A DNA stretch of 58,518 bases from Alphaproteobacteria bacterium (GCA_013289145.1 JABDAM010000006.1:1-58518); one strand, 5' to 3'. Counted from the first letter of the stretch, positions 18,996 through 47,161 are shown. Numbers and translations are program-made. The notes: a model not told the origin generated them from the letters alone.

Positions 18996-19003
18996 GAGCT
19001 ACA

Positions 19004-19789
19004 ATGCCTGCCAAAATAATAGCCATCGCCAACCAAAAGGGCGGCGTGGGCAAGACCACCACCACCGTCAACCTGGCCACCGCCCTGGCGGCTATATATA
19101 AGAAGGTATTGGTCGTAGACCTGGACCCGCAAGGCAATGCCTCCACCGGCTTAGGAATTCCCTCAGCTGCGCGGACTAAAGGCGTTTATGAACTGATCTT
19201 CGACGGCCTGGCTGTATCCGACACCATCGTTAAAACAGAAGTCCCCGGCCTGGACCTGATCCCCGCCACCATGGACTTGTCCGGCGCTGAGATCGAACTG
19301 GTCGGAATAGATGAACGGGAGTTCAAATTAAAGTCCGCTTTCCGCGCCGCCACTGAATATGATTATATTCTTATCGACTGCCCGCCGTCGCTAGGCCTGC
19401 TCACGCTGAATGCCCTGGTCGCCGCGCACTCCGTCCTCGTGCCATTGCAATGCGAGTTCTACGCGCTCGAAGGTTTATCACACCTCTCGCGCACCATCGA
19501 ACGCACGCGCCGCGCGCTGAATCCAAACCTGCATTTCGAAGGCATCGTTTTGACGATGTACGATAAGCGCAATTCCCTCTCGAACGGCGTCGCCGCCGAC
19601 GTGCGCGCCCACTTCCCCGGCATCGTTTACGACACGATGATCCCCCGCAACGTGCGTGTTTCCGAAGCGCCATCACACGGCAAACCCGTGATGATCTACG
19701 ACATGAAATCATCCGGCTCGATCGCCTACATCCAATTGGCGAAAGAATTTTTGGCAAGACAAAACAATACGCCCGCCGAAGCAGCCTGA
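19004..19789 (+). CDS. parA: chromosome partitioning ATPase ParA
   Basis: 261 aa. Deviant Walker A IAIANQKGGVGKTTT, and DLDPQGNAS. Confidence 0.95.
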   Translation: MPAKIIAIANQKGGVGKTTTTVNLATALAAIYKKVLVVDLDPQGNASTGLGIPSAARTKGVYELIFDGLAVSDTIVKTEVPGLDLIPATMDLSGAEIELVGIDEREFKLKSAFRAATEYDYILIDCPPSLGLLTLNALVAAHSVLVPLQCEFYALEGLSHLSRTIERTRRALNPNLHFEGIVLTMYDKRNSLSNGVAADVRAHFPGIVYDTMIPRNVRVSEAPSHGKPVMIYDMKSSGSIAYIQLAKEFLARQNNTPAEAA

Positions 19790-19795
19790 TAATCC

Positions 19796-20584
19796 ATGAA
19801 AGTTTTGATTAGCCCAATCAATGTTGCAGAAGCCGTCATTGCGCATGATTGCGGCACGGATATTATCGATATCAAAAATATCGATGCCAAAGTGACGGTG
19901 AATGGTGTAGCTGGCGGCTCGCTTGGCGCCAGCACAGCGGAAATTATTCGCGAAGTCATTACAACGATCAGCGATCCCAAGGTAATCTTTAGCGCAACAC
20001 TCGGCGATTTATCCGGCGATGATATTCCCCTTGCCCCTGCGCGCGCGCAAGATTTCATCGGCTGCGGCGTGAACTATATCAAGGTTGGCCTGTGTGATTT
20101 TGAAAATCCCGAACAAGCCACACGATTGATGAAAGCGGTGCGTGCGGTTTGTCCAAAAGAAATCACGCTGGTTGCCGCAGGCTACGCCGATGCCGCGCGC
20201 TTCGGCGGATTAAAACCGAACCAATTAATTAAAATCGCTTATCAATCCGGCGCGGATATGGTGATGCTGGATACTTTTGTTAAAGATGGAAAAACTTTAT
20301 TGCACGCCTTATCACCCAATGAATTATTCGGATTTACGAAAGCCGCGCATGATTGCAGGCTTGGTGTCGCCCTGGCTGGCTCAATTGGTATAGATGATTT
20401 TCCAATACTGCATGTCGTAGGCGCGGATGTTGTTGGTTTGCGCGGCGCGGTATGTGATCAGCATGATCGCACGACCATGATTAATCCCGATAAAGCCAAA
20501 GCTTTGATGGCCGCAGCTCGGGCGTTTCAATTTCAACCGGCGCCGTCACAAAGCTTCACCGCAGCCGCGCCGCATGCTTTTTAA
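19796..20584 (+). CDS. MfnB/DUF556-like protein ((5-formylfuran-3-yl)methyl phosphate synthase family)
   Basis: 262 aa. LISPINVAEA..G.DIIDIKN, YIKVGL, VAAGYADA, MLDTFVKDGKTLL, ALAGSI and VGLRGAVC match my recollection of the MfnB (UPF0264) TIM-barrel family. It is on the same strand as parA and parB, 6 nt after parA and 12 nt before parB. Confidence 0.65.
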   Translation: MKVLISPINVAEAVIAHDCGTDIIDIKNIDAKVTVNGVAGGSLGASTAEIIREVITTISDPKVIFSATLGDLSGDDIPLAPARAQDFIGCGVNYIKVGLCDFENPEQATRLMKAVRAVCPKEITLVAAGYADAARFGGLKPNQLIKIAYQSGADMVMLDTFVKDGKTLLHALSPNELFGFTKAAHDCRLGVALAGSIGIDDFPILHVVGADVVGLRGAVCDQHDRTTMINPDKAKALMAAARAFQFQPAPSQSFTAAAPHAF

Positions 20585-20596
20585 TGAGGAGATCCT

Positions 20597-21760
20597 ATGT
20601 CTGCAACGAATACCCCTGAACAAACCGCGGCGGAAAAAGCGGCGATAGGATTGCAACAGGCGATCGCGGATTCGACGCGTGTGATGGTGAAGGCGCATGC
20701 GGTCTTGGCGGCGGAAAAAACCACGGAAAAACCGAGCGCGCCTAAACGCGGGTTGGGGCGGGGGCTGGATGCCCTGTTCGCGGATGGCGAACAAGGGCGG
20801 GAGGCAAGAAGCGAGAAGCGAGAAAGTGAAATTGTGAATGCAGCGGTTGTGAAGCAAGAGGCGGGATCTCACGCCTTGCCTCTCGCTTCACAATCTCCGC
20901 GCACGCTGCCCATCACCGCGCTCATCCCCACGCCGTTTCAGCCGCGGAAAACTTTTGGCGCGGAGGATATGGAATCTTTGGTGCAATCCATTCATATGCA
21001 TGGGATTTTACAGCCGTTGCTCGTGCGTGCAGCCCCGGGTCAGCCGGATAAATATGAAATCATCGCGGGCGAGCGGCGTTGGCGGGCGGCGCAGCAGGCG
21101 CGGTTGCATAATGTCCCGGTCATTATCAAAACTTTGGATGACCGCCAGGCATTGGAACTCGCGCTGATTGAAAATATTCAGCGCGCGGATCTGACGCCGA
21201 TTGAAGAGGCCGAAGGCTATCAGCGCTTGATCGAAGAATTCGGCCACACGCAAGATGCGCTGGCGAAAGTCGTCGGGAAATCGCGCAGTCATATGACGAA
21301 TACGTTGCGTCTGCTGCAATTGCCCGCGGGCGTGCGCGAGATGGTGGGGCGCGGCGAATTGTCTGCGGGCCATGCGCGCGCGCTGGTCGGCCGCGCGGAC
21401 GCCCAAGAAGTCGCGGACATGGCGGCGCGCAAAAAATGGTCGGTGCGCGACATGGAAAAATTCACGCGCAAGCAAAAACAGCCGGTGGATTTCGCGCGCA
21501 TGTCGATCCAGGAACTCAACGCGCGGCGTCATGCCAAGAATGATAAAGATAATCCCTTTGGGCCTTTTCCGGGCATCGATCACGCCATGCCCAAAAGTCC
21601 GGATGTGGCGGCGCTGGAGGATGAAATGTCCTCGCTGCTGGGGCTGCGGGTGGAAATCCATTCCATGGCCGATGCCTCTGGTGTGCTGGGCGTGCATTTT
21701 TCCTCGCTCGATCAACTGGATGATTTGCTGCAAAAACTGACGCGGGCGAGCAGGGGATAA
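20597..21760 (+). CDS. parB: chromosome partitioning protein ParB (long form)
   Basis: 387 aa. RGLGRGLDALF, GILQPLLVR, IIAGERRWRAA and the HTH region. The N-terminal linker contains a Rep-B copy. An SD (GAGGAG) lies upstream. Confidence 0.93.
   Translation: MSATNTPEQTAAEKAAIGLQQAIADSTRVMVKAHAVLAAEKTTEKPSAPKRGLGRGLDALFADGEQGREARSEKRESEIVNAAVVKQEAGSHALPLASQSPRTLPITALIPTPFQPRKTFGAEDMESLVQSIHMHGILQPLLVRAAPGQPDKYEIIAGERRWRAAQQARLHNVPVIIKTLDDRQALELALIENIQRADLTPIEEAEGYQRLIEEFGHTQDALAKVVGKSRSHMTNTLRLLQLPAGVREMVGRGELSAGHARALVGRADAQEVADMAARKKWSVRDMEKFTRKQKQPVDFARMSIQELNARRHAKNDKDNPFGPFPGIDHAMPKSPDVAALEDEMSSLLGLRVEIHSMADASGVLGVHFSSLDQLDDLLQKLTRASRG
20801..20895. repeat. Rep-B GCGAGA-type element inside the parB linker region
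   Basis: GAGGCAAGAAGCGAGAAGCGAGAAAGTGAA is followed by the imperfect hairpin TTGTGAAGCAAGAGGCG-GGATCTCA-CGCCTTGCCTCTCGCTTCACAA. It is read in frame as EARSEKRESEIV...HALPLASQS. Confidence 0.6.
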
Positions 21761-21864: not shown

Positions 21865-22452
21865 ATGGCTTCGACTTCTTTGCCTTCAAACTTGCAAATC
21901 CACGTTCGCGACCTTGTCCCCGATATGATCAGACTGTTGGATGCGGTTTATCCCACGCATTCTGCGATAGATGCCGCCATCAGAAGGGAACTGCACAGTG
22001 AGCAGGCGGATATTTTTACCCTCGCGCGCGGTTGGGTGATCGCGAAAAAGAATTTTCATGATTTTCGCGAGAATATGCATTCAAAGGAAATTGAAAGTTT
22101 TAGCGCAGATCTGGCTTCTTTGTTCTCGGAAATAAACTATGGGCTCCAATGCGCGGGCGCAAGCCAGGTGACAAAGCTTATGCAGGATGCAAACCCGGAA
22201 AAGGTCAGCGATCCCGTGATCTATGGCATGAGGACTTTTTATCAAAGCCGGTCTTGGCCCGAAGGGGCGCGCGAGCATTCTTTGACGGAGACGTTGGGCA
22301 GTGTCATGGCTTGGGATATCAATCCCGTTGATTTTGGCAAGCTTTTGGGAATTCCAGAGGAAAAAAGTTCTGAAGTTGCAGCAATCATTACTTCTCGTCC
22401 GCCGCCGCCTCAGAAAAAGCGAAAAGAGTGGGGCGGTTGCGTTCTGCCTTAA
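21865..22452 (+). CDS. hypothetical protein
   Basis: 195-aa ORF with an SD-like AAAGGAAAC upstream. No family recognised. Pro/Lys-rich C-terminal tail. Confidence 0.5.
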   Translation: MASTSLPSNLQIHVRDLVPDMIRLLDAVYPTHSAIDAAIRRELHSEQADIFTLARGWVIAKKNFHDFRENMHSKEIESFSADLASLFSEINYGLQCAGASQVTKLMQDANPEKVSDPVIYGMRTFYQSRSWPEGAREHSLTETLGSVMAWDINPVDFGKLLGIPEEKSSEVAAIITSRPPPPQKKRKEWGGCVLP

Positions 22453-22477
22453 TGCGTTTCCGGCACGGGGAATTCGC

Positions 22478-23596
22478 ATGAAACGCTTCGCCGCTATCGC
22501 AGCAGTAAGTCTTGCCGGCGCAAACGTCCTGTTCGCGCAAGGACAATCCAAAAGCGCGCCCATCAGAAACCTTTCCGCGCAGGCCTCAGCGCGTCAGGCT
22601 TCGGATTCCTGGCGGGAGGCTTGCTGGAAAGCGCAAAACCAGAAATTATCCGCGGCGGAATTGCTGGGCACGATAGAAACCGTGATGAAAATCCCCTCGC
22701 ACGGCCCCTGCTGGTTCGCGCGCGCCACCGCGCCGCAACAAATTCAATTCATCCGTTCCTGCCTGTTCAAACAGTTTCAAGTTTTGCTGAAGAATAAAGA
22801 TACCGGCACCAAAGAAAGCCTCAAATCCGCCGGCATGATGCTGGCGCAGGGCATTCACGATCATTTCCATGCGCCGCAAAACTATCTACGCTGGACCAAT
22901 CAAGCGGACTGGAATTTCAAGGCAGCTTTGGCCGGGATGCCAGAATATAAAAACATGACCGATCGGCTCTACGCCAAGGGATCGGAAACGCTCCATTTGA
23001 AAGAGCTGGGCAAAATCGCGGAGCTTTATTTTTTAACCCATCACATGGAAAACGCCGATCTTTTGATTCACGCGCAAGATTCCAACAACTTAAACATGGG
23101 CGAAACCGACAAGTATGAAAATCTTTTTATCCTATCCTTCCATCCTGATCTGATTAAAACCAATCCGGCAACTTCTTCGTCTCAGATATTTGAAAGCAAG
23201 AATCATATTTGGGATGAAGCATTGGCGACGGGAAGCCATGAATTACGGCATGCTTCTCAAGCCTATCTCGATTCTGCGCAAACCGATCCTGATACGCCGA
23301 AAACCAGCATTTTCCGGTCGCCTGAATTCGGTTTGATGGCAAAACTTTATGATGGGAAAAGCTACAAAATTTGGGCCAAGATTTTAAATTTATGGCCGCT
23401 GGAGGATAAGGTGGGATTTAAGTTTTATAAGCTCATCCCGCATGAAAAAGACGCTTTTGAACATGAAATTATGGCGCGTGATTTAAAAGACGACAGCCTT
23501 GTGATCCACATGGCAAAGAGATCGCCGCCTACTTCCCGATACAAAAATCCGCAAAAATCCGGTCGAGCAAATCCTCCACATCCACACGGCCCGTGA
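22478..23596 (+). CDS. secreted hypothetical protein with HExxH motif (putative zinc metallopeptidase-like)
   Basis: I use the internal start MKRFAAIAAVSLAGANVLFAQG (signal peptide). The motif SHELRHA has further His/Glu residues (IPHEKDAFEHE) about 60 aa downstream. The 3' end overlaps the convergent mnmE by about 68 nt, so the exact stop and tail are uncertain. Confidence 0.5.
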   Translation: MKRFAAIAAVSLAGANVLFAQGQSKSAPIRNLSAQASARQASDSWREACWKAQNQKLSAAELLGTIETVMKIPSHGPCWFARATAPQQIQFIRSCLFKQFQVLLKNKDTGTKESLKSAGMMLAQGIHDHFHAPQNYLRWTNQADWNFKAALAGMPEYKNMTDRLYAKGSETLHLKELGKIAELYFLTHHMENADLLIHAQDSNNLNMGETDKYENLFILSFHPDLIKTNPATSSSQIFESKNHIWDEALATGSHELRHASQAYLDSAQTDPDTPKTSIFRSPEFGLMAKLYDGKSYKIWAKILNLWPLEDKVGFKFYKLIPHEKDAFEHEIMARDLKDDSLVIHMAKRSPPTSRYKNPQKSGRANPPHPHGP

Positions 23597-24936: not shown

Positions 24937-25434
24937 ATGTATAGCCGTTTCTCTGAACAGACTTTCCGGGCATCCGAATTGATTTCCTCTTTGTACCCCG
25001 CACCCACGGACCAAAAACTTACTAATTTTGAAAACAGCAAAGATGTCCTAATCGCAAGCACGGGCATGGTGTTTTGGAACGTGGAAAATATGGACAAGGT
25101 CATTGCCTTTCCCCAAAAATACGATTTGTTTTGTGATCATGGCGTTTTAATTCGGGACAAAATTGATGTGATGCGTGAAGAGGTTATGAGCCGGGATCCT
25201 ATTTTGTGGGACGCGACCGCCGTAAAAGAAATGTTATATCAGCAAGTCAGCGTTTATAAAGATACGGCTAGATTTCTTTACGGATTGCTTCAATCCATAA
25301 CGGAGGCCCCCCTGAAGAACGCTTTTAAGGACCAGGCTAATTTTACTTTCTGTTGCGCCGAAACAACAGAAATTATGTGGAAAAAGACGCCGACAGGGCA
25401 TTTATTGTTGCCGCCGCCGGATTTTAGACTTTAG
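24937..25434 (+). CDS. hypothetical protein (AT-rich orphan)
   Basis: 165-aa ORF. No family recognised. It overlaps the 3' end of the convergent ferredoxin gene by 11 nt. Confidence 0.45.
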   Translation: MYSRFSEQTFRASELISSLYPAPTDQKLTNFENSKDVLIASTGMVFWNVENMDKVIAFPQKYDLFCDHGVLIRDKIDVMREEVMSRDPILWDATAVKEMLYQQVSVYKDTARFLYGLLQSITEAPLKNAFKDQANFTFCCAETTEIMWKKTPTGHLLLPPPDFRL

Positions 25435-26386: not shown

Positions 26387-27583
26387 TCAATTTCGACTTG
26401 CGGTCGAATGAGATGCGGTTGGATCATATTTTGAATCGTACAGCGCCGCACTTTCTGAATCGAAATATTTCGCTTCCTCACCACGGAAATTGATGAAGTG
26501 GTGATAACCTTCCTCACTCTTTATATAACGCTGCGGCGCCAGCGGCATTTTGCCCGCACCCGCGACATCCACCACATAATGCGGCACCGCGTGGCCGGAA
26601 AGCGAGCCTTGCAAGGCCTCAATGATTTCAAGGCCGCGCGCGACGGGTGTACGCAAGTATGACGAGCCGTAAATAGGATCGCATTGAAAGATATAATAAG
26701 GCCGGATGCGATGCCGCACGCAAAGCCGCATTAAGTCTTTCATCACTTCGATCTCGTCGTTTACGCCTTTTAATAATGGGATTTGCGTGGTCAGGACGAT
26801 ACCCGCGCGCGCCATACGATCCGCGGCTTTGATAAACTCTGGCGTGAATTCGCGCGGATGCAATAAATGCAATCCCATCCAGATGGCTTTGTCGCTCTTC
26901 AACGCGCGGATCAGTCCCGGCGTAATGCGTTGCGGCAAGACCGCCGGTGTTTTGGTGGAAAAACGGATGATCTCAATATGCGGGATGCTATCCAATGCGC
27001 CGATCAACCATTGAATGCGTTCATCGCCCAGCGCCAGCGGCTCGCCACCTGAGAGCAACACTTCGCGTATGGCGGGATTGTTTTTAATATAGGCAATGGA
27101 TGCTTCCCATTGCGACATGGGGATCAAATGCTCGCGGTCGAGTTTGCCGACCAAGCGTGAACGCATGCAATAACGGCAATAAACCGGACATTGATTGGTC
27201 ACCAGAAACAATACGCGGTCGGGATAGCGGTGCACGAGGTTGGGGGTGACGCGGTCTTTTTCCTCACCCAGCGGGTCGGCATATTCTCCCTCGGAAATCA
27301 GGAATTCATCCTCGCGCGGGATATGCGCGCGGCGCAGCGGATCTTCGGAATCGGTGCGCGACATAAGGGATGCATAATAAGGTGTCAGGGCAATCGGCAG
27401 GTTGCTTGTCCCGGCTTCGCCGTGTTGGCCGCCCGCCGCGTGCGCGATGGCGGTGCGCTCCGTTTCCGACAGATCGAAATGCCGGGCGAAATCCTCTGGC
27501 GCGCGCAGACGGTTACGCATCTGCCAGCGCCAGTCTTTCCAATCTGGGCTATGCGCGGGCGGGAATTTCGAGGCGTGGGGCAT
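26387..27583 (-). CDS. KamA family radical SAM protein (lysine 2,3-aminomutase-like)
   Basis: 398 aa. The CPVYCRYCMRS radical-SAM cluster motif, LLSGGEPL and overall KamA/EpmB-like layout. Confidence 0.85.
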   Translation of the reverse strand: MPHASKFPPAHSPDWKDWRWQMRNRLRAPEDFARHFDLSETERTAIAHAAGGQHGEAGTSNLPIALTPYYASLMSRTDSEDPLRRAHIPREDEFLISEGEYADPLGEEKDRVTPNLVHRYPDRVLFLVTNQCPVYCRYCMRSRLVGKLDREHLIPMSQWEASIAYIKNNPAIREVLLSGGEPLALGDERIQWLIGALDSIPHIEIIRFSTKTPAVLPQRITPGLIRALKSDKAIWMGLHLLHPREFTPEFIKAADRMARAGIVLTTQIPLLKGVNDEIEVMKDLMRLCVRHRIRPYYIFQCDPIYGSSYLRTPVARGLEIIEALQGSLSGHAVPHYVVDVAGAGKMPLAPQRYIKSEEGYHHFINFRGEEAKYFDSESAALYDSKYDPTASHSTASRN

Positions 27584-27694
27584 GGCTACCCCATAGCAGA
27601 GCGGGCCGCCCAGGGGCCAGTAAAAATTACTTTAAAATTTCCTTGCATTTCTGGGGCAAGAATCTTAATACATCTTTCGTCCTAAGGGGGGAAC

Positions 27695-28012
27695 ATGAAA
27701 GAGTCTAAAATTAATATTCTAAGGCGTGAAGCTTCGGCACTGGTTACCATTACCAATCCGGTAGGCTATAAAGGCGATCTAACCATTGAGGTTCCAGGCG
27801 GAACCCCGTCTTTTGATACCGTAACGCGCGAGGGCGGCATTATGAGAGGCCATAATCCAAATACACCCATTCGTCCCATATTAAGGGAGCCTTTCGAATT
27901 TCACAAACGCGACGGCGTTGTCGCGGAAGGCACAGATACGCTGATCAGTGTCAGCGGCGTACAAATCTGGGGGAAACTGGTTTCCAGCACCGTTTGCCCG
28001 CTCAGTGGCTGA
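27695..28012 (+). CDS. hypothetical small protein
   Basis: 105-aa ORF with an SD-like AAGGGGGGA upstream. Its stop overlaps a candidate GTG start of pyrE. No family recognised. Confidence 0.4.
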   Translation: MKESKINILRREASALVTITNPVGYKGDLTIEVPGGTPSFDTVTREGGIMRGHNPNTPIRPILREPFEFHKRDGVVAEGTDTLISVSGVQIWGKLVSSTVCPLSG

Positions 28013-28619
28013 TCTCGCCAAGGCCTTGCTTTCCACCGGCGCGCTGCGCGTGAATGTCACGCAGCCGTTCCGGTGGACATCGGGCATTTTGTCACCGATT
28101 TATGTCGATTGCCGCGCGGTCATTGGTTTTCCCGATCAGCGGCGCATGCTGGTGGACGGTCTGGTTGAACTGATCAAAACGCAAATCGGCGCGGATAATT
28201 TTGATGTCATCATCGGCGGCGTCACAGCCGGCATTCCGATGGCGAGCATTCTGGCTGAGCGTTTGGATAAACCCCTCGCCTATGTGCGCAAGGAGCCCAA
28301 GGGCCACGGCAAAGGCCAGCAGGTTGAGGGTGCCGAAGTTTCGGGCAAGCGCGTTTTACTGTTCGATGAATTGATTTCGCGCGGTTCGTCGGTGTCGGCT
28401 TTTTGCCCGGCCCTGCGCGCGGCGGGCGCGCGGCTGGATCACCTGCTCGTTATGCTGTCATACGATAGCGACGAAGTGCGTCAGGCCGCATCGGAATGCC
28501 AGGTGAAATTGCACAGTCTTTTGACCCTCGATCAGGCGCTGGCCTCGGCCGAACTATCCGATGCCGACCGCGCGGAAGTCGCGCGTTTCCGGGCCGATCC
28601 GCCCGCCTGGCGGGCTTAA
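27948..28619 (+). CDS. pyrE: orotate phosphoribosyltransferase
   Basis: FRWTSGILSPIYVDCR, the PRPP motif VLLFDELISRGSS and GGVTAGIPMA. The start is uncertain: GTG at 27948 (track) or GTG at 28005. The latter overlaps the upstream ORF's stop by 8 nt. Confidence 0.88.
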   Translation: MSAAYKSGGNWFPAPFARSVADLAKALLSTGALRVNVTQPFRWTSGILSPIYVDCRAVIGFPDQRRMLVDGLVELIKTQIGADNFDVIIGGVTAGIPMASILAERLDKPLAYVRKEPKGHGKGQQVEGAEVSGKRVLLFDELISRGSSVSAFCPALRAAGARLDHLLVMLSYDSDEVRQAASECQVKLHSLLTLDQALASAELSDADRAEVARFRADPPAWRA

Positions 28620-28690
28620 GGAACTGGGATTTTAGGATGATAGGATTTTAGAAGGGCGGATTTTCTCCAAAATCCTAATTCCTAATCATT
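28618..28690. repeat. Rep-A TAGGA-type palindromic intergenic element, copy C
   Basis: AAGGAACTGGGATTTTAGGATGATAGGATTTTAGAA ... TTCTCCAAAATCCTAATTCCTAATC. It starts at the pyrE stop codon. Confidence 0.65.
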
Positions 28691-28747
28691 AAAATTCACT
28701 AAAATTGCTTCAGACCGTCACAGTTCTGTAACCGTTTCCATGATGTA

Positions 28748-30265
28748 ATGAAAAATAGGAAATTACCTCATTGGAGATGGAATATGGTTCACTTTCCCGA
28801 CACGATTTTAACCACCGATGATATGGTTTTGGCGCTTGCCAACCTGAAATATCAGATCGATGAAAAAAAACTCAGCCCGGATCAGATTACAGCGCTGGTA
28901 GCAAAGTCCGGTTTGGAGAAAGAAGCGGGACTTAAAGGCTTTTTGCTCTCAGATGTGAGCAAAATGAATGGCGGCTATCGGGACGCGGCGGATGCATTTT
29001 TAAAGAAAGATGCGGATTTCAAAGATTCCGCCAAATGGGACGAAGTGAAAAAACTCGAAGAACAGGTGGAAAAAAGCGCGCCCGCAGCCAAGCATGATGC
29101 GCCGGCGGGAAAAGCCGATGATATTAATCTGCATGGTTTTTCCGATGATGCGGCGAAACTGGCGCGGCAGGGCTTTGATATGATGATGCGCGGGTTCGAT
29201 GCCTATCCCAACCCCAATCGCGCCAACGCGCCGCAACATTACCGCGCCAAATTGATCGAAGTGGAATCAAGCGCCAAAGATCCCAACGTGTCTTTTTTCG
29301 CGGGTCGTTTTATTTTCCATCTGGATGCCGGAATGGCCACAAATTCCGAAGCGCATACGGGCGAATATATCGAACGTTATAAGGGCAAAGCCTACGACGA
29401 TCTGGCGGAAAAATTAAAAAATGATGCGAAGGCGAAAATCGATGCCGAAGCGGCGGCGAAGAAATTAGCCGATGACGAGGCCAAGAAAAAAATAGAGGCC
29501 GAGGCAGCCGGAAAAAAACTGGCTGAGGAAGAAGCCAAGAAAAAGCTTGATGCTGAGACAGCGGCGAAAAATTTAGCCCAAGTCAAAAAAGAACTGGAAG
29601 CGGCCGCGATCGTGGCGGCTTCGCAAAAAAAATCCCTGCTGGACGAACCGGAAAAAACCGGCGAAAAAATGGAGTTCGGCAAAAAGCATGAAATCAAAAG
29701 CCGCTTGAAATTATTGTCAGATCCAAATTACGCAAAACAAGAAATCGATAAACTTAAAGGCTATCCGGATGGACAGGTCGTTGTATTTGATTCCATTCCA
29801 GATCAAGGAAATCGCAACAAACCGGACTTTGGTGATAAATACGTTAAAGTTGGAGATGGAAAAGACGGTGTTTGGTACAAAATTACTGATGAAGTAAAAG
29901 GAAAACATGACCGCAATGCCTTAGCTCATACCCGGGGCGATGGCATTGCCTCCGATGCGCTGATTGATAAAATGACGCCTAAGCTACAAACAGGTTCTGA
30001 CCTTGCAGATACTTCTGCGCGCGATGGCGGTTCCGCGCCGACGCTCAGAGATAAAATCACCATGAAATACGGCGTTATTTCCAAGGTGGTGATTGATGCA
30101 ACCACCGGCGATCTGGTTGAATTCAAAAAAGAAGCCGCAACGCAACAGGCGCGCATCGACCTTGAAAATAATGCGAAGAACAGCGTTGAAGTTAAGATCG
30201 GCGGTCAAAAAATGGTTGCGGAAAAAGTGGCGGGTGTGCAGCTGCAAGATTATAGTCCGAATTAA
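28748..30265 (+). CDS. hypothetical coiled-coil protein with internal 18-aa repeats
   Basis: 505-aa ORF (alternative start MVHFPD at 28784). The central region KIDAEAAAKKLADDEAKK / KIEAEAAGKKLAEEEAKK / KLDAETAAKNLAQVKK is repeated. No signal peptide or recognised domain. Confidence 0.55.
   Translation: MKNRKLPHWRWNMVHFPDTILTTDDMVLALANLKYQIDEKKLSPDQITALVAKSGLEKEAGLKGFLLSDVSKMNGGYRDAADAFLKKDADFKDSAKWDEVKKLEEQVEKSAPAAKHDAPAGKADDINLHGFSDDAAKLARQGFDMMMRGFDAYPNPNRANAPQHYRAKLIEVESSAKDPNVSFFAGRFIFHLDAGMATNSEAHTGEYIERYKGKAYDDLAEKLKNDAKAKIDAEAAAKKLADDEAKKKIEAEAAGKKLAEEEAKKKLDAETAAKNLAQVKKELEAAAIVAASQKKSLLDEPEKTGEKMEFGKKHEIKSRLKLLSDPNYAKQEIDKLKGYPDGQVVVFDSIPDQGNRNKPDFGDKYVKVGDGKDGVWYKITDEVKGKHDRNALAHTRGDGIASDALIDKMTPKLQTGSDLADTSARDGGSAPTLRDKITMKYGVISKVVIDATTGDLVEFKKEAATQQARIDLENNAKNSVEVKIGGQKMVAEKVAGVQLQDYSPN
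29435..29595 (+). repeat. about 3 tandem copies of a 54-bp coding repeat
   Basis: AAAATCGATGCCGAAGCGGCGGCGAAGAAATTAGCCGATGACGAGGCCAAGAAA is followed by two diverged copies, all in frame. Confidence 0.7.
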
Positions 30266-30349: not shown

Positions 30350-31618
30350 TTATTTGCTTTGCATAGAATCAAAGAAATCCTGATTGGATTTGGTCGTTTG
30401 CAGTTTATCCAGCAGGAATTCAACCGCATCGACCGTGCCCATGGGCGACAGGATCCGGCGCAACACCCACATTTTGGATAGGGTGCTTTTGTCGACCAAA
30501 AGTTCCTCTTTCCGCGTGCCGGATTTCGCGACGTCGATGGCCGGGAAGACACGCTTATCGGCGACTTTGCGGTCGAGGATGATTTCGCTGTTACCCGTCC
30601 CTTTGAATTCCTCGAAGATTACTTCGTCCATGCGGCTGCCGGTATCGATCAGGGCGGTAGCGATAATGGTCAATGAACCGCCGTCCTCAATATTCCGCGC
30701 AGCGCCGAAAAAGCGTTTCGGTTTTTGCAAGGCATTGGCATCAACACCGCCCGTCAGGACTTTACCAGATGACGGCACCGTCGTGTTATAGGCGCGGCCG
30801 AGGCGGGTGATACTATCGAGCAAAATGACGACATCGCGGCCATGTTCGACCAGGCGTTTGGCTTTTTCAATCACCATTTCGGCGACTTGCACGTGGCGTG
30901 TTGCCGGTTCGTCGAAGGTTGATGATACCACTTCGCCTTTCACGGTGCGGGACATGTCCGTGACTTCCTCCGGACGTTCATCAATCAGCAGGACCATCAA
31001 ATAAACTTCAGGATGATTGGTCGTGATGGAATTCGCAATCGATTGCAGCATCATGGTTTTACCCACGCGCGGCGGCGCGACGATCAGGGCGCGCTGGCCT
31101 TTACCAATCGGCGCGACCAGTTCGATAATCCGGCCCAGCATTTCCTTGTTCTTCGCGCCGGCTTTTTGCTCGATCTCAAGCTTCATTTTTTCGTTGGGAT
31201 AAAACGGCACCAGGTTGTCAAAGGCGATACGGTGACGCAGTTTTTCCGGATCCTCGAAATTCACCTGTTCAATGGTGTCGATGGCAAAATAACGATCATT
31301 ATTTTTCGGCGGGCGTAATTTGCCGCTGACGGTATCACCCGTGCGCAGGCCGAATTTTTTGATCATGTCCGGCGGGACGTAAACGTCGTCGGGACCGGCC
31401 AGGTAATTTTCCTCTGCACTGCGCAGGAAACCGAAACGGTCGGGCAGAACTTCGATCACGCCGGAACCTTCTATGGTTTTGCCGTCTTCGGCCATGACCT
31501 TTAGGATATGGAACAGCATCTGCTGGCGCGGCAGGTTGGCCGGGCTTTCGATGTCTAGTTCTTCGGCGATTTTAAGCAGTTCAGGAGCGGACTTGCGCTT
31601 CAGTTCATCAAAATTCAT
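30350..31618 (-). CDS. rho: transcription termination factor Rho
   Basis: 422 aa. FGFLR, Walker A PPRVGKT and the RNA-binding and ATPase motifs throughout. Confidence 0.97.
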
Positions 31619-31755
31619 ACGTTACTCGTGCAGGGGAGAGGTTCAGAGGTGAAATAACACCAGTTTGTTTGGAAAAATCACGTAAAGAAGATAGAATATC
31701 AACGTGACGGGCCCATTTATAGGCATTTTGGACGCGAAGGTCAAGCGGAAAGTCT

Positions 31756-31806
31756 CATATATTATATATAATAATATTTATATTAAATATAATGATGTTG
31801 TTATTG
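31756..31806. other. AT-rich tract (putative DNA unwinding element)
   Basis: CATATATTATATATAATAATATTTATATTAAATATAATGATGTTGTTATTGG is nearly all A/T in an otherwise GC-balanced locus, directly flanking the DnaA-box cluster. Confidence 0.6.
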
Positions 31807-31853
31807 GTGGCGGGATAACGGGGATAAGCCTTATTCCACCAATTATCCCGCAT

Positions 31854-31862
31854 TTATCCACA
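31854..31862 (+). promoter_or_regulatory. perfect consensus DnaA box TTATCCACA
   Basis: Exact match to the 9-mer consensus. Confidence 0.8.
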
Positions 31863-32168
31863 GGGCGTGAGCCCGGGATAACTTTTGGGACAAAAGCGCA
31901 ACGAAATCTATAAACTATTGAAAAGTAAAGATAATTTTATTGCGTTAGCCTGGGGATAAATTTTATTGCCAAAAGTTATCCCAAAAAATACCCATGACAT
32001 TATCATTGGGGATAAATCCATGTCGGCATCATGCAAATAGGGGATAAAAGCCATGAAACCTATTCAAAAGGGATAATTTAAAGTTATCCCCAGACTTATC
32101 CCGCATCTTATCCGAAACTATTAATTTCCTTGAAGTTCAGGGGATTTTTGCGTCACAATGGCTTTGTA

Positions 32169-32810
32169 ATGACCCTACATTTAACGACAGACCAGCTTGC
32201 AGATATTCTATTCCAGCGCCCGGGGCGTGTGACCGAAGGGATTTTGGAGGAGCGCTCGGCTTTTGAAAAATTATCAGACCGGCTAATCTGGGAAGATCAC
32301 CGCCTGTCACGCCCCTATAAGGAAAATCCCATCCGACGCTGGGCAGCAAAGCATATGTTAGTTTTTGATGAACATGCGCAGGCGAAAGAGAATCCGCGCT
32401 CCCTGCGCCACGCGATTTTAGAGTTAAAAGCGCTTGGCTTCTCCTATGAGCAACTAAATAAATTTCGCTATCTATCGAAACAGTTTATGCTCGGCCTTGA
32501 TCCTTCTCCAATTCTTGAAAAGACAAAGAAATATTTTGGGGAAAGAGAAAAAATGATCTGGGAAAAAGGTAGCTTAGATTCTTATTGGTCATATTCATGG
32601 TCTGATAAAAGCGTTCTGGGGGCTGCCATTATCTGTGTGGAAAATGACCAGAAGCGGGTTGTATCAACCCATTTTTTCCCCGGCGAACTTGAGGAAGAAG
32701 CTTATGCCCTATTAAAAGAAAACATTCGGGTTCGCCATGAACGACAACCCGATAAAGTTCCCCTTATTCCGGCCTGCGCGCGCCATGTGCCCAAGGGATT
32801 AGAGGCGTAA
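32169..32810 (+). CDS. hypothetical protein (origin-adjacent orphan)
   Basis: The ATG at 32169 (MTLHLTTDQ) is preferred over the TTG at 32130. 213 aa, AT-richer than the backbone, no family recognised. Confidence 0.5.
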   Translation: MTLHLTTDQLADILFQRPGRVTEGILEERSAFEKLSDRLIWEDHRLSRPYKENPIRRWAAKHMLVFDEHAQAKENPRSLRHAILELKALGFSYEQLNKFRYLSKQFMLGLDPSPILEKTKKYFGEREKMIWEKGSLDSYWSYSWSDKSVLGAAIICVENDQKRVVSTHFFPGELEEEAYALLKENIRVRHERQPDKVPLIPACARHVPKGLEA

Positions 32811-32854: not shown

Positions 32855-33712
32855 ATGCACCTCGCCGAAACGAACCTGGATATTCATCACCTGCACCTCG
32901 TCTCCGATGCGACGGGGGAGACGATTAAGGGCATGACGCGCGCGGCGTTGGCGCAATTCGGGCCTTCGATTATCAAACGCCATCACTGGTTTTTAATCCG
33001 CACGCCGCAGCAGATGGAAAAGGTGCTGGCCAGTATCGCAGAGCATCCCGGGCTGGTTTTTTCGACCTTTGGCGAAAAGGAATTGATGTTTCAATTGGAA
33101 CGCGGCTGTGTCGATCTGGGCGTGCCGCATGTGGGCTTGATGGATAGCGCGCTGAATGCCTTGTCGGATTTTCTGGGCCAGCCGATTGAAAGCTCGATCG
33201 GCAAACAACATGCGCTGGACGAGGCCTATTTCCGCCGGATTGAGGCGATGGATTTCGCGCTGGATCACGATGACGGCCAGAACGCTTCGCGCCTGTCGGA
33301 CGCGGATGTGATTTTGCTGGGCGTGTCGCGCACGTCAAAAACGCCGACCTCGCTTTATCTCGCCAACCGGGGGATTAAGGCGGCGAATATCCCGCTCGTG
33401 CCAGGTGTGGAGGCGCCCGCGATTTTATATGAACTGAAGAAACCGCTGATCGTCGGCTTGACGTCGGAGCCCGAACATCTCGCCATGATCCGGCAATCGC
33501 GTTTGAAAAACCTCTCCGCGCGCGGCGTGGACGGTTATGCCGAGATCGACGCCGTTCACGAGGAAATCCGTGCCGCGCGCCGCCTCTTTAGCAAAAACGG
33601 CTGGCCGGTGGTGGATGTCACGCGGCGTTCGATTGAAGAAACCGCGTCGGAGATCATTGCCCTGCTCGACCGGCGGCGGGAAGAAAAAGGAGAAGAATTA
33701 ATTGAGTTCTAA
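32855..33712 (+). CDS. pyruvate, phosphate dikinase / PEP synthase regulatory protein (PpsR/DUF299 kinase-pyrophosphorylase)
   Basis: 285 aa. LVSDATGET, the P-loop-like ILLGVSRTSKTPTSLYLA and NIPLVPG. Confidence 0.88.
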   Translation: MHLAETNLDIHHLHLVSDATGETIKGMTRAALAQFGPSIIKRHHWFLIRTPQQMEKVLASIAEHPGLVFSTFGEKELMFQLERGCVDLGVPHVGLMDSALNALSDFLGQPIESSIGKQHALDEAYFRRIEAMDFALDHDDGQNASRLSDADVILLGVSRTSKTPTSLYLANRGIKAANIPLVPGVEAPAILYELKKPLIVGLTSEPEHLAMIRQSRLKNLSARGVDGYAEIDAVHEEIRAARRLFSKNGWPVVDVTRRSIEETASEIIALLDRRREEKGEELIEF

Positions 33713-35577: not shown

Positions 35578-35652
35578 GATAATAATAGGATTTTAGAGAT
35601 TCCGCGCGGCCCGAAAACCTTCTAAAATCCGATCATCCTAAATTCCTAAATC
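35574..35652. repeat. Rep-A TAGGA-type palindromic intergenic element, copy D
   Basis: TAGGATAATAATAGGATTTTAGAG ... CTTCTAAAATCCGATCATCCTAAATTCCTAAATC. It spans the gap between the convergent smr and pirin genes, and its right arm supplies the last pirin codons (DLGI-stop). Confidence 0.7.
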
Positions 35653-36345
35653 AAACAACAGCAATTCGGAATCTTCATTCGCGATGACATTCCGCGCGGG
35701 TTCATCGATGATGCCCAGGCCGTCACCTTGGGAGAGTTGTTGGCCGCCATAAGTCACGCTGCCTTTGGCGACTTGCAGCCAGTATTTGCGGTTGCTTTCG
35801 ACAGGCATCGCGATGGATTGCCCGGATGATAATTGCGCGAGCGACAGGCGCGCATCGGCGGCGATGTCAAAGGTGTCGGCAATATTCTCGCTTGCGGGCG
35901 CGACAACCGTTTGCCATTTCCCGCGGCGGTCGTTCTCGTCCAGCGTGCGGTCCCAATAATCCGGCGCGAGGCCGCGCGTATGCGGCATGATCCAGATTTG
36001 CAGCAAATGCACCGGCGCGGTTTTGGAAGCGTTGAATTCGCTATGGGCAATCCCGGTGCCCGCGCGCATCATTTGAATTTGATTGGGCTTGATCGTCGCC
36101 TGGCCGCCGGTGTTGTCTTCGTGTGCCAATTCACCGTCCAGAACGATGGTGATAATTTCCATATTGTCATGCGGATGGGGCGGAAATCCGCCGCCAGGCG
36201 CGACGACGTCTTCGTTGATCACGCGCAGCGGGCCGAAATGATGCCATTCCGGATCGCGATAAGCGCCGAATGAAAAGGTATGTTTGCCGTCGAGCCAGGC
36301 TGTTTGCGTAACGCCGCGCGCGGCGGAGGGGCGGTGGAGGAGCAT
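35638..36345 (-). CDS. pirin family protein
   Basis: 235 aa. GFPPHPH..MEIITIVL.GEL.H.D cupin motif. Confidence 0.88.
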   Translation of the reverse strand: MLLHRPSAARGVTQTAWLDGKHTFSFGAYRDPEWHHFGPLRVINEDVVAPGGGFPPHPHDNMEIITIVLDGELAHEDNTGGQATIKPNQIQMMRAGTGIAHSEFNASKTAPVHLLQIWIMPHTRGLAPDYWDRTLDENDRRGKWQTVVAPASENIADTFDIAADARLSLAQLSSGQSIAMPVESNRKYWLQVAKGSVTYGGQQLSQGDGLGIIDEPARNVIANEDSELLLFDLGI

Positions 36346-36357
36346 ACTTTGTAATAT

Positions 36358-36412
36358 GGAGAGGCGAGAAGCGAGATGCTAGAGGCGAGATGAAAATTCC
36401 CGCTTCTATTCC
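36358..36412. repeat. Rep-B GCGAGA-type element, intergenic copy
   Basis: GGAGAGGCGAGAAGCGAGATGCTAGAGGCGAGATGAAAATTCCCGCTTCTATTCC lies between pirin and the Tim44-like gene. AGAAGCG and CGCTTCT form an inverted pair. Confidence 0.65.
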
Positions 36413-37080
36413 TTCGTTTCCACCAAATGCCACGCCGGATCGGTGCCGCGCGTGTCGCGGCGGAAGGTCCAGGTGTCGCGGATTTCTTCGCGCGCGGCGG
36501 GATCGCCGACGACGACATTGCCCGCGCCGTCACGCACCACGCTGGTTTGCTCGGAAATGAATTCAACCGTGACCTCTGCATCAAAACCGATCATGCGCGC
36601 GCCGGTAATGGTCGTGGTGGAAATTTTGTGCAGGGTGGTTTCCATCGTGTAATCTTTTTGCGCGCGCGCCTTCGCGTCCTCGGCAAAATGATCGTACAAT
36701 TTCGGCGATAATAAATTTTTCAATGTTTCCAGATCGCCGCGCGCATAGGCTTTGACAATCATTTCAAAGGCCGCGCGCGCGCCCTGCATAAAGCCGCGTT
36801 CATCGAAGTCGCTGTCGTAGTCTTTAATTTGTTGCAGGCCCTGGTTGACGGATAGCGGTTCATTTGTCGCGGGAACGCCGTCCGGTAATACTTTGGCATT
36901 CACGGGTTTCGCGTTCATCGCGCGGTCAACCGGGCTGCCGGACAAGGGCCGCAAGGACTGCGCCGCGAATGGATCGGACGCGGGCATTTGCGGTTCATTG
37001 TCATTGCGCACGCCCAGCACGCGCCAAAGCTGGTAAACCAGTGCAGCCACCACCACCGCTAAAATCACAATATCAATCAC
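36406..37080 (-). CDS. Tim44-like domain-containing protein
   Basis: 224 aa. N-terminal TM helix and a C-terminal Tim44-like fold pattern (FMQGARAAFEMIVKAYARGD ... WTFRRD). It is the conserved neighbour of secB in alphaproteobacteria. Confidence 0.75.
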   Translation of the reverse strand: MIDIVILAVVVAALVYQLWRVLGVRNDNEPQMPASDPFAAQSLRPLSGSPVDRAMNAKPVNAKVLPDGVPATNEPLSVNQGLQQIKDYDSDFDERGFMQGARAAFEMIVKAYARGDLETLKNLLSPKLYDHFAEDAKARAQKDYTMETTLHKISTTTITGARMIGFDAEVTVEFISEQTSVVRDGAGNVVVGDPAAREEIRDTWTFRRDTRGTDPAWHLVETKE

Positions 37081-37171
37081 TCAGGGCCTCCGAAGGCTTG
37101 CTATATTCCTGCCATCATATCATATTCGGCGCCGCTAACGCAAACGACCCGTCATAATTACAAGGAAACGC

Positions 37172-37657
37172 ATGCCTCCCAGCCCCCCGAGCCCATCAAT
37201 TATGCAAATCGGCCAATACCTCCGGGATTTGTCATTTGAGAATTTTTCCATGGAAGCGCAAGTGCCGCCAGGGACGATGCCCGCCATCGAAATGGGCGTG
37301 GATGTGGAAGTTCGGGCTCTGTCCGAACCCAAAATCACTGACGGTCACGCAGTTGGAGATTATGAATCCGGCCTAAAAATCCGCATTCTCGCGCGGTCTG
37401 CGGGGAAAGACGGCAAGGTCGCGGCAGAGGCGAAACCGGTGTTTATGATTGAAGTTGCCTATGCCGGGCGTTACCGCATGGCGGAAGTGCCGGAGGGCGA
37501 AGTCGAACCTTTTCTGGCCATCGAAGCGCCGCGGTTGCTTTTCCCCTTTGTCCGCCAGATCGTGGCCGAAGCCGCTATGCACGGCGGCCTGCCGCCATTG
37601 TTGATCGCGCCGGTGGATTTCATGGCGGTTTATCAGCAGCAAAAAACGGCTAAATAG
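37172..37657 (+). CDS. secB: protein-export chaperone SecB
   Basis: 161 aa. QYLRDLSFEN and LLFPFVRQIVAEA..HGG.PPL.I.P.DF. Confidence 0.9.
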   Translation: MPPSPPSPSIMQIGQYLRDLSFENFSMEAQVPPGTMPAIEMGVDVEVRALSEPKITDGHAVGDYESGLKIRILARSAGKDGKVAAEAKPVFMIEVAYAGRYRMAEVPEGEVEPFLAIEAPRLLFPFVRQIVAEAAMHGGLPPLLIAPVDFMAVYQQQKTAK

Positions 37658-37731
37658 CTGGAAAATACTTGCTTTTTTCCGGGCGATCAGTAATTTGATG
37701 GGAATAATAAACTAAACACAGCGAGCATAAC

Positions 37732-38340
37732 ATGACGGGTCTTTTCGAACTTAGTCCATTTTCAACGCAAGATGAATTCGCGGCGATGGTTGACCATATC
37801 GAAGCCCGAGCGCCGCAATCATTTGAAACAGCATTCTCAATGATATTGGGGAATCCGGAGATTCTCGGGTTGGAAGAAGTTCTGAGTAAACCAGCCACGC
37901 CTGCGCAACGGTTTGCCCAGTTAGACCCTCTTGCCGCAATTATGGCTCTCCCGGCGATTTGTGCGAATCCACCGGAAGGTTTTTTTGGGGATATCCCGAT
38001 TACGAATGAAGTGTCTTGCCAAAATGACTCTTCGGTTGCTTTTGCCTCTGGCACGATTTCCTGGGATGTCAGTAAACTTTTTACTTTTGCCAGAGATCAT
38101 TTTGGTAACGATAAATTGCGCGCGGCGGTGGATGTCGCAATCACGGAAGTTATGAAAGATGAAAAAGTCTCCGAATTGTTAGGACAGGATGCAGTGATCT
38201 GGTTTCAGACGTTAATCAGAGCGCGGAAAGAGTCATTAGGCAAAATCGGAGAACCTCGTGACAAAGCCGAGCATCATTCGTCCTTTGCCCCGCCTGCACG
38301 GGTGGCGCCGGCGGCTGCGGCTGGGAAATTTACCCTCTAG
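37732..38340 (+). CDS. hypothetical protein
   Basis: 202-aa ORF. No family recognised. It overlaps the convergent dnaQ by 4 nt. Confidence 0.45.
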
Positions 38341-39035
38341 GCGCTTTTGATTTTTTTCCAGATCGCTTTGTCGCCCATGGTTTCGATGAATTTTCCATGG
38401 GCTTCGATTTCCTCGGGCGGAACGATGAACTTACGCGCGGCGCGGATGATTTTTTCGGGCAGCGTGGCGGTTTCGTCCGATACTGCGAAATTGCTGGTGC
38501 GGCTGACGTCAAATAACTCCGGCTGGGCGCCGCCCATCAGATAAAAATAGACATCCGCCAAAAGATGAGAGTCCAGCAATGCGCCGTGGTGGTTCCGGCC
38601 TGAGTTATCCACGCCGAAACGGCGGCAAAGCGCATCCAAACTGGCCGGCTGGCCGGGAAATTTGTTGCGCGCCAATTGCAGGGTATCGCGCGCGCGGGAG
38701 AGCGGAATTTGCGCATGACCGGCCGTGGTCAATTCCGCATTGATGAATTTCATGTCAAAGCCCGCATTATGGATCACCAGCGGCGCGTCGCCGATAAAGG
38801 TCATGAAATCCGCCGCCACATCCATAAAACGCGGCTTATCGGCCAGGAATTCCGTGGTTAAGCCATGGATGCGGACGACTTCTTCGGGCACATCGCGTTC
38901 GGGGTTTAGGTAGGCGTGAAACGTCTTGCCTGTCGGGCGGTAATTATAAATTTCCACACAGCCGATTTCCACCAGCCGGTGGCCCGCGCCGGGGTCCATG
39001 CCGGTGGTTTCAGTATCGAAAATGATTTCACGCAT
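38337..39035 (-). CDS. dnaQ: DNA polymerase III subunit epsilon (3'-5' exonuclease)
   Basis: 232 aa. Exo I FDTETTG, Exo [13 protein letters not shown] and Exo [17 protein letters not shown]. Confidence 0.95.
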
Positions 39036-41361: not shown

Positions 41362-41955
41362 CTATGTCGCGCTAGGCGAGAAGGGCGAGCGAAAACTATA
41401 CGGAATAATATGGTTCCATCCTGCGGATCGCATACGTCTGGCAAAATGGTTATCATGCTCCCATAAATGAATAGGATCAGTCAGGCGCTGTTTGCGGGAT
41501 TGTCCAGACGCTCTTCGCCATACATAGGGCGCACGATCGCCAATCGGCAGGGCCAGAATTTTTTGAGATTTATTCAGGCTTTGCTTGTCGAGAAACTCAC
41601 AGATCAAGCTCGCGTTCCGTCCGACGGCATAGATCATTTGTTCTTTCAAGTTGTCAATTTTATGGATGCCCTGTCCGCTGCGGTCATATAGATAAATAAC
41701 GCGTAAATTCGTGCTTAGGTTCTCTGAGAGGAAGTCTTTGTCTCCCGTCACAATGATGGGGTTGGGATAGTCCAAAAGAAAGGTGTGCAATTCTTCATCC
41801 GGCTTGCCAGAGAATCCGAGCTCATGGACATGCACAATATTAAGGCATTCTGTATTCATGGCTTGAGTCAACTTCCGGAATGTCTGCACCATGCCGGGCG
41901 GCAGATTTTCATCAATCAAGATCATCGGAGCCCAACTATTCGTCGGTTCAAGCAT
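41362..41955 (-). CDS. PIN-like (DUF5615/Mut7-C-like) domain protein with C-terminal extension
   Basis: 197 aa, AT-rich. The N-terminal ILIDENLP...IIVTGDKDF pattern resembles DUF5615 PIN-like toxin domains. The last codons run into a Rep-B copy (41371..41395). Confidence 0.5.
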   Translation of the reverse strand: MLEPTNSWAPMILIDENLPPGMVQTFRKLTQAMNTECLNIVHVHELGFSGKPDEELHTFLLDYPNPIIVTGDKDFLSENLSTNLRVIYLYDRSGQGIHKIDNLKEQMIYAVGRNASLICEFLDKQSLNKSQKILALPIGDRAPYVWRRASGQSRKQRLTDPIHLWEHDNHFARRMRSAGWNHIIPYSFRSPFSPSAT

Positions 41956-46980: not shown

Positions 46981-47161
46981 CCGGGCGGCCTTTCAGGCGG
47001 AAATCCCTGCTTTTTTGCCGGATTTTTGTGCGGGGAGCAAGGGGGAACGAGTATTTTACGTCCTATAAGACTTACTAAATTAAGGTTGTGGAGGGGCAGA
47101 TCCCCTCGCTGCAATCAGGCATAAGGCCAGAAGGTAAGTCGCCTGAAATCAGAATGCAAAA

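Follow-up and report, generated by a model that had tools for sequence, protein, structure and literature searches.

We analyzed a 58,518-bp stretch of DNA from an uncultured, deep-branching alphaproteobacterium (GCA_013289145.1, JABDAM010000006.1:1-58518), hereafter called the window. The intergenic gap at positions 31619-32168 (550 bp) is very likely the replication origin (oriC) of the main chromosome and dependent on DnaA, as predicted from its sequence and position. The gap extends from the start of rho (31618, minus strand) to the ATG (32169) of an open reading frame (ORF) of 213 amino acids, which is called the orphan ORF below. An initial annotation had proposed an origin at this place. 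The proposal is supported by a cluster of DnaA boxes, an AT-rich tract beside the cluster, a DUF299 gene as boundary gene, the position and polarity found in relatives, parS sites and GC skew. Direct observations are the sequence anatomy of the gap, the statistical excess of boxes, a position and polarity shared with relatives, parS sites nearby, and a skew switch. All sequence-level features that could be tested here fit a DnaA-dependent chromosomal origin, and the assignment is supported in this sense. As a predicted origin, the locus is a routine oriC of a well-known kind in locally scrambled surroundings. A standard origin finder would return the same prediction, and only the local offset of the skew and the strongly head-on genes are unusual.

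DnaA boxes and the AT-rich tract in the gap

Thirteen exact TTATCC or GGATAA cores are present within 307 bp (31810-32116). At the background of 0.00076 TTATCC per bp outside the gap, 0.23 cores would be expected in a segment of this length (Poisson P(≥13) ~8e-19). The initial annotation had counted at least 14 cores, but the fourteenth is merely a degenerate TTATTCCAC at 31831. The heptamer TTATCCC accounts for 11 of the 13 cores. Since the whole window contains 18 copies of TTATCCC, only seven are found in the remaining 58 kb. Furthermore, 11 matches in the cluster are at most one mismatch from TTATCCACA or TTATCCCCA. The perfect TTATCCACA DnaA box reported at 31854-31862 is present, as are the four boxes described as an extended variant (TGGGGATAA at 31951 and 32007, AGGGGATAA at 32039, and TTATCCCCA at 32084).

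Among the intergenic gaps of at least 120 bp in the window, every other gap contains at most one core, with the exception of 57607-58518, which contains four. This segment was rejected as a box cluster, as it appears to be a coding frame running off the end of the window. The gap upstream of dnaN (46981-47161) and an AT-richer gap (48275-48463) were also considered as alternative origins and rejected, since neither contains a box.

The 13 boxes are arranged in two groups, and both groups have boxes on both strands. The left group (31810-31881) has five boxes. On the minus strand, TTATCCCGC at 31810 and TTATCCCCG at 31819 form an abutting tandem pair, and a single box, TTATCCCGG, is located at 31873. 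On the plus strand, TTATCCCGC at 31843 is followed at an 11-bp step by the perfect consensus box at 31854. A box-free, AT-rich spacer of 69 bp (31882-31950) separates this group from the right group (31951-32116), which has eight boxes. Four of them are on the minus strand (TTATCCCCA at 31951 and 32007, TTATCCCCT at 32039, and TTATCCCTT at 32068), and TTATCCCAA at 31976 is on the plus strand. The last three form a same-orientation array on the plus strand with 12-bp steps (TTATCCCCA at 32084, TTATCCCGC at 32096, and TTATCCGAA at 32108).

An AT-rich tract beside the boxes, as noted in the initial annotation, was confirmed at 31756-31806. This tract is 51 bp long, lies 3 bp from the first box and consists of 90.2% A/T, compared with 46.4% for the window. 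Of all 40-mers in the 58.5 kb, just one reaches 36 A/T, and it falls inside the tract. The tract has internal AT palindromes (I6 and I10) and is a candidate DNA-unwinding element (DUE). The earlier statement that the gap has no credible ORF is essentially right: the only frame is a mechanical 69-amino-acid ORF with a GTG start (31704-31913), which crosses the AT tract.

The junction between the AT tract and the boxes was compared with the basal unwinding system (BUS). According to the BUS rule, a box within two mismatches and an optional second box are separated by a spacer of at most 16 bp from at least three NAN triplets (PMC8287927). On the plus strand, the triplets AAA, TAT, AAT, and GAT (31785-31796) are followed by a 13-bp spacer (31797-31809) and the tandem boxes. 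Thus, the BUS or DnaA-trio pattern is formally matched at 31785-31809, although a match of this kind has low specificity in AT-rich DNA and is easily obtained by chance. The triplets differ from the preferred 3'-GAT-5', and the proximal box is within two mismatches only when the TTATCCCCA consensus of the lineage is used.

The gap resembles the oriC of Escherichia coli and generic origins in several respects. In E. coli, the unwinding element is located beside the R1 box, with GGATAA on the same strand. The AT-rich tract here is likewise beside a box with GGATAA on the same strand. Same-orientation box arrays near the helical-repeat spacing and a possible IHF site between the box groups are further likenesses. 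The tandem box pair, the 13-bp spacer and at least three NAN triplets are like those of a generic oriC with a BUS (PMC8287927). In contrast to the E. coli origin, the gap contains no GATC (Dam) sites, and direct repeats of the 13-mer type were not detected in its AT tract. In addition, the triplets are not 3'-GAT-5', and the locus is not located beside gidA-mioC or dnaA.

Position of the locus among alphaproteobacterial origins

The left boundary gene, rho (30350-31618, minus strand; NF006886, 2.6e-203), is transcribed away from the gap. On the right, the orphan ORF (32169-32810, plus strand) has no Pfam or NCBIfam match, and it is followed by a DUF299/COG1806 kinase-pyrophosphorylase gene (32855-33712, plus strand; PF03618, 3.8e-89; NF003742, 5e-95), the right boundary gene. 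The mapped origin of Caulobacter (Cori) and the predicted origin of Rickettsia are located between hemE and the DUF299/COG1806 gene, and in some lineages rearrangements have changed the boundary genes of the origin (PMC1914354, PMC6393856).

To the left of the gap, the order outward is rho, an unknown ORF of 505 amino acids, pyrE, a KamA-family radical-SAM gene, mnmE, and two unknown ORFs, followed by parB, an MfnB-like gene, parA, rsmG, mnmG, a pilin-like gene, and holA. To the right, the orphan ORF and the PF03618 kinase gene are followed by aroE, coaE, an Smr-domain gene, pirin, a Tim44-like gene, secB, and dnaQ, and farther away by gyrB, an MFS transporter gene, and dnaN (45862-46980). Thus, the origin-linked indicator genes near the gap are the DUF299 kinase gene, rho, mnmE, mnmG, rsmG, parAB, dnaQ, dnaN, gyrB, and holA. 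The earlier assignment of dnaN to the adjoining ORF was corrected, as the three beta-clamp Pfam domains are encoded at 45862-46980. No recF is present, and the MFS transporter gene lies between dnaN and gyrB instead.

We mapped 29 proteins of the window onto 161 fetched loci. The order parB-parA-rsmG-mnmG-mnmE-rho, an interval of 0.6-7 kb, and kinase-aroE-coaE-dnaQ was nearly universal (about 100 loci). Ninety-nine loci contained rho together with the kinase gene. DnaA-box-like 9-mers were counted in 400-bp windows, and in 78 of these loci the window richest in them fell within the rho-kinase interval, which makes up only 18% of each locus. Moreover, 69 relatives had three or more boxes, and in 67 of them the boxes lay between the AT-richest tract and the kinase gene. 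The same polarity is seen in the window.

The initial annotation had placed a small orphan gene in the conserved neighborhood. The gene set and the DUF299 kinase gene of this neighborhood were confirmed, but the orphan ORF is a lineage-specific insertion. It was not found in 165 origin-region loci, and its only homologues (36-44% identity) are located beside atpI/atpB on other metagenomic contigs (L162-L164), not at an origin. It therefore belongs to a small unannotated family. In relatives, the AT-richest tract is typically 330-400 bp from the start of the kinase gene, and here 388 bp separate the center of the AT tract from the ATG of the orphan ORF. Since this distance matches the spacing in relatives, the orphan ORF looks like a clean insertion.

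The composition of the boxes was compared with the hemE-kinase origin gaps of 122 relatives. These gaps are dominated by TTATCCACA, TTATCCCCA, and TTATCCCCG, and C is the commonest base at box position 7. Thus, the variant TTATCCCCA is present as described, but it is the common alphaproteobacterial box and is as frequent as TTATCCACA in these gaps rather than an extended form. The relatives have at most 7 strict cores (median 2), so that the 13 cores here are about twice as many as in any of them. The AT tract of the window is also much longer and purer relative to genome GC than those of the relatives. Furthermore, the flanks are rearranged here: the mnmG-parB and dnaQ-secB-tim44 segments are inverted, and at least nine genes are inserted.

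Two relatives illustrate the comparison. In Azospirillum lipoferum (L119), the order is rho-hemH-hemE, then TTATCCCCT, a short AT tract, TTATCCACA and further boxes, and then the kinase gene. As in the window, the boxes and a short AT tract are located directly upstream of the kinase gene. In Bartonella florencae (L065, 9403-10001), the kinase gene and rho are 598 bp apart without hemE. The gap contains boxes of the TTATCCCCA type, as do the predicted Rhodospirillales and Bartonella origins, and it holds the AT maximum of the whole locus. The boundary pair and the polarity are the same as in the window.

The locus shares several features with Cori and with the predicted hemE-RP001 origin of Rickettsia. 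The right boundary gene is the DUF299/COG1806 gene with a PF03618 domain (CCNA_00001 in Caulobacter). The genes rho, mnmE, mnmG, rsmG, and parAB are on one side, and aroE, coaE, dnaQ, and secB are on the other. The AT-rich tract is on the hemE/rho side, with the DnaA boxes toward the kinase gene. A cluster of parS sites was also detected on the plus strand inside rsmG, upstream of parA (18383-18722). Two perfect copies of TGTTTCACGTGAAACA (18383-18398 and 18707-18722) and one copy with three mismatches (18554-18569) were found, compared with 0.28 matches expected, and none of 100 shuffles reached three. In Caulobacter, parS is located about 8 kb from the origin. Here, this origin-proximal marker is likewise some kb away, at 13 kb from the gap.

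A further likeness to Cori is a promoter-like element beside the AT tract that points away from the tract. The element is a putative rho promoter on the minus strand (TTGACC at 31744-31739, a 17-nt spacer, and TATAAA at 31721-31716), which was recognized by eye and is tentative. It is missing from the promoter-scan list because its -10 hexamer lacks the final T. In Cori, the hemE promoter is needed for replication (PMC6393856).

In contrast, the hemE-DUF299 boundary pair of Cori is not found here: rho is the left neighbor, and the orphan ORF lies between the boxes and the kinase gene. Because hemH and hemE are gone from the locus, rho abuts the AT tract. The 13 strict boxes, including the perfect TTATCCACA, also differ from the two moderate G-boxes and five weak W-boxes of Cori. 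The earlier statement that no full CtrA site (TTAA-N7-TTAA) exists was confirmed for the gap and for the whole window. GANTC is absent from the gap, as compared with 79 copies in the window. Cori has five CtrA sites and five GANTC sites (PMC6393856). Thus, the narrower definition of Cori fails here on three points, the hemE boundary, the CtrA sites, and the GANTC sites. Since CtrA sites, GANTC, and GATC are all absent from the gap, both control of the Caulobacter type (CtrA/CcrM) and control of the E. coli type (Dam/SeqA) are unlikely. The lack of CtrA and CcrM (GANTC) sites suggests that the origin is probably controlled by DnaA alone.

The locus is a positional homologue of the hemE-DUF299 origin that Caulobacter, Rickettsia, and Azospirillum have; by its position it descends from that origin, and it would work in a similar way.

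GC skew, gene orientation and alternative readings

Several observations weigh against an origin in the gap, but the assignment is not overturned by any of them. The earlier caveat that dnaA and hemE are outside the window holds, and hemH is also outside. In Wolbachia, the origin moved with hemE and not with the COG1806 gene (PMC1914354). No close relative was found in the scans with the orphan ORF (genome and metagenome contigs), and the scans with Rho and the kinase gave distant relatives only. The remaining points concern GC skew and gene orientation and are described below.

For lack of a close relative, conservation was tested at the level of position. The nearest matches (Rho ~72% and kinase ~53% identical) come mostly from Rhodospirillales-type genomes. 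Exact-protein look-ups returned only Logan contigs of the same strain, and a search of genome contigs with a 22-mer spanning the tandem boxes gave no exact match.

The initial annotation had proposed a GC-skew check. Within the window, an origin-type sign change was detected, but its best point is ~12 kb to the left of the gap. The cumulative G-C minimum is at 19795, not at 31.9 kb. To avoid amino-acid bias, skew was calculated from fourfold-degenerate sites instead of all third codon positions (GC3). From 1 to 19.8 kb, the plus-strand skew is -0.185 for plus-strand genes and -0.074 for minus-strand genes. From 19.8 to 31.6 kb, the values are +0.078 and +0.095, where the left arm of an origin at 31.9 kb should be negative. 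Beyond 32.2 kb, they are +0.140 and +0.147. As the values agree in sign for genes on either strand, the asymmetry is like that of the replication strand. A one-step change-point model favors 19.8-20.6 kb, and the best-fitting change point (19790-20600) coincides with the junction of parA, the mfnB-like gene, and parB. When all genes are included, a result like this would be expected from a switch at 32.17 kb in only ~2% of cases by the location of the estimate, and P is ~0.001 by the fit deficit.

This preference for 19.8-20.6 kb is due to the mnmG-rsmG-parA-parB block (16382-21760), which is inverted in place relative to all relatives. The coding-strand fourfold skews of mnmG (-0.54), parA (-0.32), and parB (+0.31) are at the 2nd, 7th, and 100th percentiles of the relatives. 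When the block was removed, the fit became flat from 21.9 to 32.9 kb, and 32.17 kb was not rejected (P = 0.10). When rho was removed as well, P for a switch at 32.17 kb was 0.25. The negative coding-strand skew of rho is gene-specific, being seen in 82% of the relatives. Without the block, the switch can be placed only within about 15-33 kb. In addition, the interval between the block and the gap consists mostly of genes without a counterpart at the origins of relatives, and thus need not be at compositional equilibrium. We conclude that the skew supports an origin in the window and is compatible with 31.9 kb, but does not pinpoint it.

An origin at 19.8-20.6 kb itself was rejected. The segment is fully coding (parA stop at 19789, mfnB-like gene at 19796-20584, parB start at 20597), so that there is no room for an origin. 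It contains one TTATCC and no AT tract. A single inversion does not explain the offset, because rho and mnmE keep their ancestral orientation toward the cluster and the skew varies from gene to gene within the inverted block, with mnmG and parB at opposite extremes. The possibility that parB was replaced through horizontal transfer was also considered, and the identity patterns give no support for it.

Two genes at this junction are unusual. The gene wedged between parA and parB (19796-20584) is like MfnB/4HFCP_synth, the (5-formylfuran-3-yl)methyl phosphate synthase. Its match to NF002575 (8e-61) is below the curated cutoff, and the skew minimum falls exactly at this gene. ParB (20597-21760) is long (387 amino acids), with an N-terminal extension of ~100 residues before the ParB_N domain.

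The earlier caveat about head-on genes was also confirmed. Forks leaving 31.9 kb would run in the direction of transcription for only 18 of the 56 genes (32% of coding bases). This orientation is a mild argument against an origin there and an oddity of the genome. For an origin at 20 kb, the value is 35% of coding bases, and thus orientation does not discriminate between the two positions. The dnaQ-secB-tim44 block (36406-39035) is also inverted in place as compared with the order in about 100 alphaproteobacterial loci. The head-on genes are explained in part by the inversion of this block and the mnmG-parB block.

The alternative that survives best, although improbable, is that the cluster is an auxiliary DnaA-binding locus for titration or regulation, such as datA, DARS or the Bacillus clusters, or a relic of an ancestral origin. 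In that case, replication would start at another site, either next to hemE or dnaA at a new location or closer to the ~20-kb change point. The position of this change point, the gene orientation, and the loss of hemE and hemH with the Wolbachia precedent (PMC1914354) are all in its favor. The number of cores, well above that in any of the 122 relatives, might also suit titration. As in datA, DARS, and the DnaA-box clusters of Bacillus subtilis, the boxes are dense, intergenic, and origin-proximal. However, those clusters have no adjacent unwinding element and are off the conserved origin position. The cluster in the gap abuts the only strong AT tract of the window, and it has the conserved origin position and the polarity and spacing of the origins of relatives. 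Moreover, the 19.8-20.6 kb segment offers neither intergenic space, a box cluster nor an AT tract, the skew offset loses significance without the inverted block (P = 0.10-0.25), and Bartonella has the rho-origin-kinase layout without hemE.

A related explanation appears less probable still. The long-term site of fork divergence may be ~12 kb to the left (parA/mfnB-like/parB, near parS), and the cluster, at the ancestral hemE-DUF299 position, would be an origin re-positioned very recently or a DnaA-binding relic. If this is true, the lineage would have uncoupled its origin from the compositional switch, and it would tolerate a head-on orientation in about two thirds of the origin-proximal genes (mnmG, parAB, dnaQ, gyrB, and dnaN among them).

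It is very improbable that the TTATCCC motifs are operators of another transcription factor at divergent rho and orphan promoters, unrelated to replication. In favor of operators, the genes on either side of the motifs are transcribed divergently, the 9-mers vary in their 3' half, and the orphan ATG follows the three-box array at a distance of 53-85 bp. However, the same 9-mers dominate the origin gaps of the 122 relatives, which lack the orphan ORF and mostly lack adjacency to rho. In addition, one box is the perfect DnaA consensus, and thirteen sites far exceed the needs of an operator.

Finally, a mis-assembly that made the neighborhood and the skew pattern artefactual is hardly credible: the apparent metagenomic source of the window and an abrupt flip of the skew within an operon speak for it, but the independent Logan contig L081 reproduces rho, the gap, and the orphan ORF with one mismatch in about 835 aligned bp, the independent contig L165 reproduces mnmG-rsmG-parA-mfnB-like-parB, and the tetranucleotide profiles of five segments correlate (r = 0.89-0.97). 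A chimera at 19.8 kb in particular was rejected, since L165 spans the junction and the composition is homogeneous.

Predicted mechanism, further features and meaning of the probable origin

The arrangement of the gap suggests how an origin of this kind could work. Binding of DnaA, unwinding of the AT tract, and firing are predicted from the elements described above. ATP-DnaA would occupy the 13 TTATCC(C/A)NN boxes, that is, the five-box group at the AT tract and the eight-box group past the 69-bp spacer. DnaA would form oligomers on the same-orientation arrays with steps of 9-12 bp (31810/31819, 31843/31854, and 32084/32096/32108). The tandem pair at 31810/31819 may steer an oligomer into the adjacent tract at 31756-31806. 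The tract would then melt and receive the helicase, and forks would leave both ways. In the history of the lineage, hemH and hemE would have left the locus, and the orphan gene would have come to lie between the DUF299 kinase gene and the boxes by insertion.

Other elements were found in the gap. The rho leader (31619-31755, minus strand) is 137 bp long with 55% A/T. In the spacer between the box groups, an IHF-like site, TTTCAATAGTTTA (31911-31923, minus strand), has one mismatch to WATCAANNNNTTR and is a weak match; exact IHF consensus sites occur only three times in the whole window. An exact 11-nt direct repeat, AATTTTATTGC (31933-31943 and 31959-31969), flanks the DnaA box at 31951. The region upstream of the orphan ORF (32117-32168, plus strand; 52 bp) has a weak, terminator-like hairpin with a T-run at 32126-32144, which is not significant (one found vs 0.7 expected). 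No RNA genes were detected in the whole window by Rfam at the gathering threshold and by tRNA scans.

The flanks contain at least nine origin-proximal genes without a counterpart in the 165 origin-region loci (21865-23596, 24937-25434, 26387-30265, 35638-36345, 37732-38340, and the orphan ORF). They are two unknown ORFs, an ORF of 165 amino acids, the KamA-like radical-SAM gene, pyrE, the unknown ORF of 505 amino acids, pirin, an ORF of 202 amino acids, and the orphan ORF. These genes suggest repeated insertion into the region. Farther out, ORFs at 842-1462 (GC 39%) and 47162-49261 (45%) are low in GC compared with the window mean of ~54% and have an atypical third-position composition. They are possibly acquired DNA. 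The latter segment includes an ORF of 370 amino acids beside dnaN (47162-48274; GC 45%), which has no family match, and an ORF with an EAL domain (48464-49261). Just downstream of gyrB, an ORF of 197 amino acids (41362-41955) has PIN_10/DUF5615 domains and possibly encodes a nuclease of the toxin-antitoxin type.

The analysis locates the likely oriC of an alphaproteobacterial lineage that is uncultured and without close relatives among sequenced genomes. Its position would be useful for orienting and closing the genome and for estimating growth rates from coverage (peak-to-trough ratio). Furthermore, the locus would provide a data point on the evolution of the ancestral hemE-DUF299 origin, in which the CtrA/CcrM signature is absent, the heme genes have been lost from the locus, a gene has been inserted, and many boxes are present.

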